From NCBI RefSeq assembly GCF_003334405.1, contig NZ_QOWM01000059.1: 650 nucleotides of DNA; one strand, 5' to 3'. The translations under genes were made by a program, and so were the position numbers. This DNA comes from Escherichia coli (GTDB lineage: Bacteria; Pseudomonadota; Gammaproteobacteria; Enterobacterales; Enterobacteriaceae). The notes under the pieces were generated by a model. That model saw only the letters and a list, made by a program, of their open reading frames with translations, searched no databases and was not told the origin of the DNA. Within the stretch, counting starts at the first letter, position 1. Every line of letters begins with the position of its first letter. Below, one piece after another: positions 1 to 650 of this stretch.

Positions 1-650
1 CTTTTCGCGCCGGTGTGTATTCCGGCTCCACCTGTCTGGCCAGTTGCTCCACCGTCAGCCCGCACTGCGCAAGCCACGCCCGGCTTTCACTGCTCACGCG
101 GTCTGCCCGGATTTCTTCCTCCAGCCTGTCCAGCAGCCGCACCAGTTCAGCCGGGAACACCACGCCGTGGCCGTTCTCACTCCCTTCCTGCTGGAGCGTC
201 TCTGCCAGGCTGCGCCGCTGCGCTTTTTCCCGCTCGCCGTTCTCTGTCTCGACCCGGATGAGCGGCGTGAAGCTTCCCGGCTCGTATACCGTCTGGATAC
301 GTGTGGTGTCAGTCTGCACCGTCGTCAGCCTGTCTCCGTCCCAGCCATACCACGTCACCTCCGGTTTACGCGACAGCGACATCCACCCCGTCAGGTCACG
401 CTCCCGCCGCCAGACCCGTTTTGCCATTCGCCGTCCCAGCGGGTCGTAGAGGTAGCGGCTCTCGACCAGTGGCTCGCCATGCTGTATCCGCGTGTAGAAC
501 ACCAGGCGGTGCTGGCTGTCGTAGTGGTAGTGGTGGGTCCGCTCGTCGTCCGTCCGTATCACACCCGCCGGGATGCGGTCCGTCTTCTCCGTCAGCCTGC
601 CGTATTCATCGTGGCGGTAGACATAGTGCGCATCCTCCGCGATGCGGTTA
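1..650 (-). CDS. rhs: Rhs family YD-repeat protein, conserved core region; internal fragment, partial at both ends (N-terminus beyond position 650, C-terminus beyond position 1)
   Basis: Hand translation of the reverse complement in the frame with codons 649..647 down to 4..2 gives 216 codons with no stop. The product contains YD-repeat motifs ([39 protein letters not shown]) and matches my recollection of the E. coli RhsA/B/C/D core. GC about 64% with G/C-rich third positions, typical of Rhs cores. Paralog cannot be resolved from this window; the symbol is a family-level placeholder. Confidence 0.95.
32..253 (-). other. Glu/Arg-rich segment of the Rhs core lacking YD motifs, probably helical
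   Basis: Translation [74 protein letters not shown] is dense in E/R/Q/L/A and has no Y-x-Y-D pattern. Helical character is inferred from composition only, not modelled. Confidence 0.5.
326..625 (-). other. Block of four degenerate YD (Rhs) repeats within the Rhs core coding sequence
   Basis: Protein-level motifs fitting the YD-repeat pattern (Y-x-Y-D-x2-G-R-L or close variants) at about 593..625 ([11 protein letters not shown]), 500..529 ([10 protein letters not shown]), 428..454 (YLYDPLGRR) and 326..352 (WYGWDGDRL). Spacing is about 25-35 residues. These are degenerate at the DNA level, not nucleotide direct repeats. Confidence 0.8.

Follow-up and report, generated by a model that had tools for sequence, protein, structure and literature searches.

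Solved T6SS Rhs shells share a YD-repeat cocoon and two sequence anchors that are kept in all Rhs shells, Y-E-P-G-S-F-x-P-L-x-R-x-E and (Y/F)-(Y/H)-x-D-H-x-G-x-P, the latter corresponding to PF03527. In the minimal shells of S. bongori Rhs, P. protegens RhsA, and V. parahaemolyticus RhsP, the same cocoon and anchors are found with only 2 to 5 residues between the anchors. Tse5 of P. aeruginosa (8cp6) has the same anchors and carries about 34 extra residues at the site, QACEPDPPELLQLRQAFAAEGQPLPAQCVPALGEAR, a loop that is not discussed in the Tse5 structure paper. Tse15 of A. baumannii (8uy4 and 8uxt) has an insertion of about 40 residues in the same hairpin loop, and Hayes et al. (PMC11461821) reported its residues 1256 to 1267 as a solvent-exposed exterior loop without density. 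Kielkopf et al. described the exteriors of T6SS Rhs proteins as smooth and without decorations, and pointed to loop 1312-1315 of S. bongori Rhs as the most notable spot of longer loops in other Rhs shells. TcB-TcC, with its beta-propeller, and the teneurins, with their FN-plug and NHL domains, likewise combine a YD cocoon with extra domains that mediate interactions. Loading of the cages onto the T6SS spike and release of the toxin are open questions.

The window, by which we mean the whole 650-nucleotide stretch of Escherichia coli DNA that was analyzed, encodes part of such a shell. Of its six frames, only the minus strand read from nt 649 was open throughout, giving 216 codons without a stop; in this frame, window-protein residue i occupies nt 650-3i to 652-3i. 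The product was 100% identical to residues 938 to 1153 of E. coli RhsD (1426 residues). The window was also 100% identical to the N-terminally truncated rhsE pseudogene of K-12, and because identity is complete to both K-12 rhsD and rhsE, the locus of origin of the window is ambiguous. By megablast, 3724 of 5426 complete E. coli genomes carried the 650 bases, at a median of 3 places per genome, and nearly all of these places carried the annotation "RHS element core protein" or rhsD. Of the 10,781 megablast places, 15 were plasmid-borne rather than chromosomal.

RhsD scored 2787.7 bits against the NCBIfam RHS_core equivalog NF041261 (cutoff, 2000), with residues 1 to 1258 matching profile positions 1 to 1261, and the profile spanned the repeats and the insert described below in one unbroken stretch. 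YD repeats (TIGR01643/PF05593) were recognized by TIGR01643 in 7 stretches of RhsD (E=1.8e-47). At the N terminus, DUF6531 was clear at residues 46 to 123, and the Pfam PAAR_motif matched weakly at residues 3 to 20 (E=0.084). The identity of the gene is thereby established by computation, and we conclude that the window is an ordinary piece of a classic, long-known, and fully annotated E. coli rhs core gene. Set beside the E. coli RhsA-D cores (NF041261; P16919), the window is RhsD itself and shows no difference from it; its helical sub-element carries no domain name.

A GTG-initiated ORF of 144 codons was present on the plus strand at nt 15 to 449, antisense to the rhs frame, and either this ORF or an RNA element could in principle explain the composition of the region at a level other than protein. 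The ORF was Ser/Arg/Cys-rich, as would be antisense read-through of a 64% GC gene, and was without annotation in any RefSeq record examined; it is most likely an artifact of high GC. Moreover, Rfam returned no match to either strand of the window even at E<=1, and the minus frame was open throughout, conserved at the protein level, and under a dN/dS of 0.1. We consider it exceedingly improbable that the feature lies anywhere but in the Rhs protein.

Inspection of the window had suggested that nt 326 to 625 encode four degenerate YD repeats, and all four were borne out within that interval (Table 1). A loose YD pattern matched three times in the minus frame and zero times in the other five frames, and in 5000 shuffles of the window protein the same pattern matched a mean of 0.04 times, with a maximum of 2. 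Aligned to solved Rhs proteins, the repeats fell in register with the YD repeats of those structures (Tse5, E=1.5e-8), which establishes the repeat register. Pfam RHS_repeat scored them weakly (E values of 0.7 and 5), so "degenerate" is a fair label. The motif of repeat 4 is kept as GWDGDR in Tse5 and other relatives, and its strands were modeled at model residues 975 to 982 and 985 to 990. Beyond it, a last shell hairpin (strands at model residues 994 to 1000 and 1007 to 1014) contains the sequence YEPGSF.PL.R.E, common to solved Rhs proteins. The charged segment had been placed after the four repeats in the earlier note; the order was right, and this fifth hairpin separates repeat 4 from the insert.

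Table 1. Positions of features in the window (nt), of neighboring RhsD features outside it, and of the spacing between the two anchors in RhsD and solved shells
Feature	Position or length	Strand	Basis or remark
Internal rhs core ORF fragment	2..649	-	Translation, 100% megablast matches, mapping to RhsD
YD repeat 1	593..625	-	Motif scan, AlphaFold2 secondary structure, alignment to Tse5; modeled hairpin strands YVYRH and LTEKTD
YD repeat 2	503..535	-	Motif scan, AlphaFold2 secondary structure, Tse5 alignment
YD repeat 3	428..460	-	Motif scan, AlphaFold2, alignment to solved Rhs proteins; nearest of the four to consensus
YD repeat 4, WYGWDGDRL	326..352	-	Read from sequence; degenerate, W for Y, spacing one residue under canonical
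Fifth, atypical shell hairpin (last regular one)	248..304	-	Between repeat 4 and insert; N-terminal anchor of insertion site
Helical insert module	2..247	-	RhsD ~1072-1153, 82 residues; predicted by AlphaFold2 in context (pLDDT 65-88) and alone
Predicted insert helices	221-241, 185-208, 107-151, 65-91, 38-52	-	AlphaFold2
GSENG five-residue indel	170..184	-	Acidic loop between helices 2 and 3; present or absent by allele in alignments
Long amphipathic helix with L-E-x-E-(I/L) motif (E1114, E1116)	107..151	-	AlphaFold2, alignment
Most conserved insert motif (WL..CGLT.EQ)	44..76	-	Alignment columns
PF03527	RhsD 1155-1190		Outside window; Pfam
TIGR03696 (Rhs-associated core)	RhsD 1181-1258		Outside window; NCBIfam
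PxxxxDPxGL aspartyl-protease motif	RhsD 1249-1258		Outside window
DUF4329 toxin	RhsD 1292-1411		Outside window; toxin region ~170 residues
Anchor gap, V. parahaemolyticus RhsP (8h8a)	2 residues
Anchor gap, P. protegens RhsA (7q97)	about 4 residues
Anchor gap, S. bongori Rhs (8qjb-d)	about 4-5 residues
Anchor gap, Tse5	about 34 residues
Anchor gap, Tse15	about 40 residues
Anchor gap, RhsD	83 residues

For structure prediction, relatives were collected by a full-library HMMER search, and 82 of them, each of at most 1700 residues, were aligned with RhsD residues 60 to 1258 as input for AlphaFold2. The model was a beta cocoon with a mean pLDDT of 87.3 and a pTM of 0.81. Foldseek matched it best to the Tse5 shell (E=1e-90; 30% identity), with TM-scores of 0.80 when normalized to the model and 0.88 when normalized to Tse5. 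The Advenella, P. protegens, Tse15, S. bongori, P. laumondii, and Vibrio shells gave model-normalized TM-scores of 0.61 to 0.75, other T6SS Rhs shells reaching about 0.75 (model normalized) and 0.88 (target normalized), and teneurins and TcB-TcC were more distant matches. The RhsD core is thus predicted to adopt the closed beta-cocoon fold, with the window repeats modeled as beta hairpins of the cocoon, in agreement with the earlier proposal that they form the beta-cage.

The modeled core was nearly all beta apart from five helices within RhsD residues 1074 to 1141 (1074-1080, 1085-1092, 1104-1118, 1124-1132, and 1137-1141), flanked by modeled strands at 1066 to 1073 and 1152 to 1159. When the insert was modeled alone from a 17-sequence alignment, the same five helices were obtained, with a pLDDT of 64 overall and of 82 to 83 at the center, and the isolated model superposed on the full-length RhsD model of the AlphaFold database (P16919) with a TMq of 0.75 and an rmsd of 2.0 A. 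The insert is therefore predicted to be helical, as had been supposed from composition, and self-contained rather than a beta strand continuous with the YD shell. A second non-beta segment was modeled outside the window at RhsD residues 252 to 285, where a 14-residue helix (the QAQRAEEARTSSLS region) is followed by a Ser-rich stretch; pLDDT was below 50 at residues 271 to 275, and means over 10-residue blocks were 56 to 68.

An E/R-rich segment lacking YD motifs had been assigned to nt 32 to 253, and both its existence and its composition held. Glu and Arg made up 17.6% and 12.2% of the 74 residues encoded by that interval, versus 7.0% and 9.4% of the whole core. The limits did not hold, as the predicted module extends from about nt 247 to the left edge of the window at nt 2. 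The 82-residue insert contained one Tyr, 16 acidic and 12 basic residues (net charge, -4), and zero YD motifs. As the earlier note had stated, it is found close to the C-terminal end of the core, just before PF03527 and TIGR03696. Because its longest helix was strongly amphipathic (hydrophobic moment, 0.69) and other Rhs and PAAR effectors insert helices into membranes, the helices could interact with membranes and help the cage or toxin across the target-cell envelope. That role is very unlikely: the mean hydrophobicity was negative in four of the five helices and 0.23 in the fifth, which is five residues long; the 16 acidic and 12 basic residues argue against it as well; and the segment does not resemble the transmembrane helices of prePAAR effectors, which are N-terminal and chaperone bound rather than embedded in the shell.

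The insert is flanked by the last shell hairpin on one side and, on the other, by the PF03527 strand with which the C-terminal plug begins. Anchor-to-anchor spacing was read from HMMER alignments to solved structures, and the range in Table 1 establishes the RhsD segment as an insertion relative to solved homologues. Since three solved shells have 2 to 5 residues at the site, the module is a clade-specific insertion and not a universal Rhs feature. Absence of the stretch from homologous cores, which had been raised as grounds for reading it as an insertion, thus applies to the more distant homologues, namely, those three solved T6SS shells, and not to RhsA-D-type proteins, in which it is present. 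Among 59 relatives that span the site, the gap ranged from about 10 residues (Chitinimonas) to 118 residues, partly of low complexity. By these alignments, the site is an indel hot spot of which the E. coli-type module is one occupant. By the same alignment mapping, S. bongori loop 1312-1315 marks the insert site. Tse15 residues 1256 to 1267 also map to it.

Neither of the two longer occupants with solved structures is the same element. The Tse5 insert is less than half as long as that of RhsD, and homology to the E. coli module was not demonstrable; we considered it as a solved version of the RhsD module and rejected it, as the hhalign probability was 4%, and with that value against Tse5-type short inserts no solved structure can be claimed for the insert. 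The Tse15 insertion is unrelated in sequence, Y/K/P-rich, partly disordered in the map, and without a helical bundle. The extra domains of TcB-TcC and teneurins differ in having other folds, other positions, a much larger size, and known partners.

The location of the insert immediately before the plug-forming region is compatible with helices that face the lumen and, from within the cage, contact or retain the C-terminal plug or the unfolded toxin, in the manner of anchor helix or plug elements. Helices inside Rhs cages have been described, including the anchor helix of P. protegens RhsA (Kielkopf et al.) and the cage-opening helix of Tse15 (PMC11461821). We nevertheless judge a lumenal position improbable. 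The equivalent Tse15 loop is described as exterior and solvent exposed (PMC11461821), an 80-residue bundle is large against a lumen of ~25,000 cubic angstroms (Kielkopf et al.) that also holds a toxin region of ~170 residues, and the segment is strongly hydrophilic with its net negative charge. From the one published sentence on the nonhomologous Tse15 loop at the same site, together with the volume argument, we infer by analogy that the insert is on the exterior.

The reading that we favor, and hold to be somewhat probable, is that the RhsD-type fragment encodes cocoon hairpins followed by a separately folding helical decoration of the exterior that serves in bracing or docking. The first 134 codons would supply the final regular beta hairpins of the YD-repeat cocoon around the C-terminal toxin, and the last 82 codons five short helices that form a small bundle and fold separately. 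The bundle would sit in a hairpin loop, preceded by the final shell strand (...PLIRVE) and followed by the HLYHCDHRGLP strand (PF03527) that begins the inward-spiraling C-terminal plug and the aspartyl-protease region. It would thus lie on the outside of the cocoon at the C-terminal pole, its conserved hydrophobic face packing and its variable charged residues facing solvent. There it may be a surface decoration particular to the clade, either bracing the junction of shell and plug or offering a protein-docking surface in T6SS loading, and would be neither cage wall nor catalytic; we infer bracing or docking as its role. The pLDDT of 65 to 88 in the insert, and of 64 for the isolated model, counts against this reading.

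Conservation of the stretch in the RhsA-D family had been suggested in the earlier note, and the alignments upheld this and reached further. Besides the E. coli RhsA-D-type proteins, Salmonella, Citrobacter, and Serratia had a conserved copy of the module, and conservation was weaker in Paracidovorax. The helix pattern remained recognizable at 23 to 33% identity in Serratia silvae, Citrobacter farmeri, and Paracidovorax avenae/citrulli. In the motif W-L-x-x-C-G-L-T-x-E-Q, every specified residue was invariant among the enterobacterial sequences aligned. Fourteen insert positions were conserved as hydrophobic with i/i+3/i+4 spacing. Few polar positions were conserved (E1114, E1116, S1123, S1126, and Q1091); E1114 was present in 16 of 17 aligned sequences and E1116 in 14 of 17, and S1123 directly precedes predicted helix 4, at the place expected of an N-cap residue. 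Between E. coli alleles, dN/dS was 0.10 to 0.11 in the insert and 0.06 to 0.11 in the flanking shell, on small counts of 8 to 9 synonymous and 3 nonsynonymous changes. These comparisons establish both conservation and purifying selection. Recent acquisition of the insert was also considered and rejected, its GC content (~0.64) being equal to that of the rest of the core. We conclude that the insert is under constraint and probably folded, and did not arrive recently as foreign DNA.

The same data bear on the weightiest rival, a loop expansion tolerated without specific function, in which the helices are simply what charged, Leu-rich filler adopts. Such an expansion would fit a site that accommodates such widely differing lengths, some of low complexity, in relatives, and would fit the three solved Rhs shells that work without the insert and the lack of a match to any known domain. 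It would also fit the faster divergence of the insert, which was 64% identical among near relatives versus 72 to 82% for the flanks, and 25 to 30% versus 53 to 57% among distant ones; this is also expected of a loosely constrained loop. A functionless loop would not be expected, however, to evolve at a dN/dS of about 0.1, equal to that of the shell, to retain its helix pattern and hydrophobic positions from Enterobacterales to a betaproteobacterium at the low identities given above, or to keep WL..CGLT.EQ invariant among enterobacterial copies, and the isolated segment gave the same predicted fold as in context. We therefore regard functionless expansion as rather unlikely. A more specific form of the favored reading is that the insert, with its L-E-x-E helix and WL..CGLT.EQ motif, is a functional exterior decoration restricted to the RhsA-D-type clade that acts as a surface on which a T6SS component docks or as a latch at the shell-to-plug junction with an effect on toxin release; this we propose tentatively, as a possibility with the balance against it.

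Domain and fold searches with the insert gave no named match. Pfam searches of the window, of RhsD 900 to 1426, and of the insert alignment gave no family for the insert (best E=0.16). An insert profile searched against PDB sequences gave a best E of 0.11, a chance match to an unrelated protein, and did not match Tse5; Foldseek of the isolated insert model against the PDB gave a best E of 2.1. Against AFDB50, the best 50 Foldseek matches listed were all the same module in Rhs proteins. The earlier note had thought the sub-element probably known. This is true of the gene and its sequence, which the curated RHS_core model spans, insert included; no description of the helical sub-element itself was found in the published literature searched. 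What is new is thus confined to a helical module that is missing from all solved Rhs shells and belongs to no named family, within a gene already known.

Genomic context was compared for correlates of the insert. A PAAR-like N terminus, MSGKPAAR...CSVCPGG, occurs in relatives with and without the insert, so the presence of the insert does not track N-terminal type. vgrG was directly upstream of the insert-bearing Serratia homologue; the insert-bearing Paracidovorax homologue stands alone, with vgrG not adjacent. The neighborhoods of these two homologues had no common partner beyond the usual vgrG and immunity genes. Thus, among the N-terminal types and the two neighborhoods compared, no correlate of the insert points to VgrG, PAAR, or an adaptor as a partner. 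Downstream of rhsD is a small ORF, ybbC. At the rhsE locus of E. coli Z226-6, a vgrG ORF runs into the last 46 nt of the insert-coding region (window nt 1 to 46); judged from the sequence of this junction, a deletion that ends inside the insert appears to have removed almost all of the rhs core. The junction places vgrG directly upstream at that E. coli rhs locus.

All solved T6SS Rhs shells are without the module, and current models therefore ignore it, although the most widespread E. coli Rhs family contains it, near-identical windows occurring in the 3724 genomes noted above. The smooth, undecorated exterior described by Kielkopf et al. does not hold for the RhsD-type model, and if a functional exterior decoration is real, the RhsA-D-type clade would stand apart from the T6SS Rhs shells with solved structures, which are smooth. 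Should the module dock a partner or stabilize the plug, a loop-swap mutant would give a handle on the steps of loading and release. If it does nothing, the site would be a permissive exterior position for engineering tags or cargo-targeting domains into Rhs cages.

Two further observations concern other parts of rhs cores. Synonymous divergence between two rhs cores was uneven, with a dS of 0.13 upstream, 0.49 across the four YD repeats, 0.17 in the insert, and 0 downstream, and such jumps between adjacent segments look like a recombination mosaic within the core. In addition, a protein of 509 amino acids contained, at residues of about 282 to 500, three to four tandem copies of a segment equivalent to RhsD residues of about 1144 to 1207 (the PF03527 area), which may be either orphan core ends fused into an array or an artifact of assembly.
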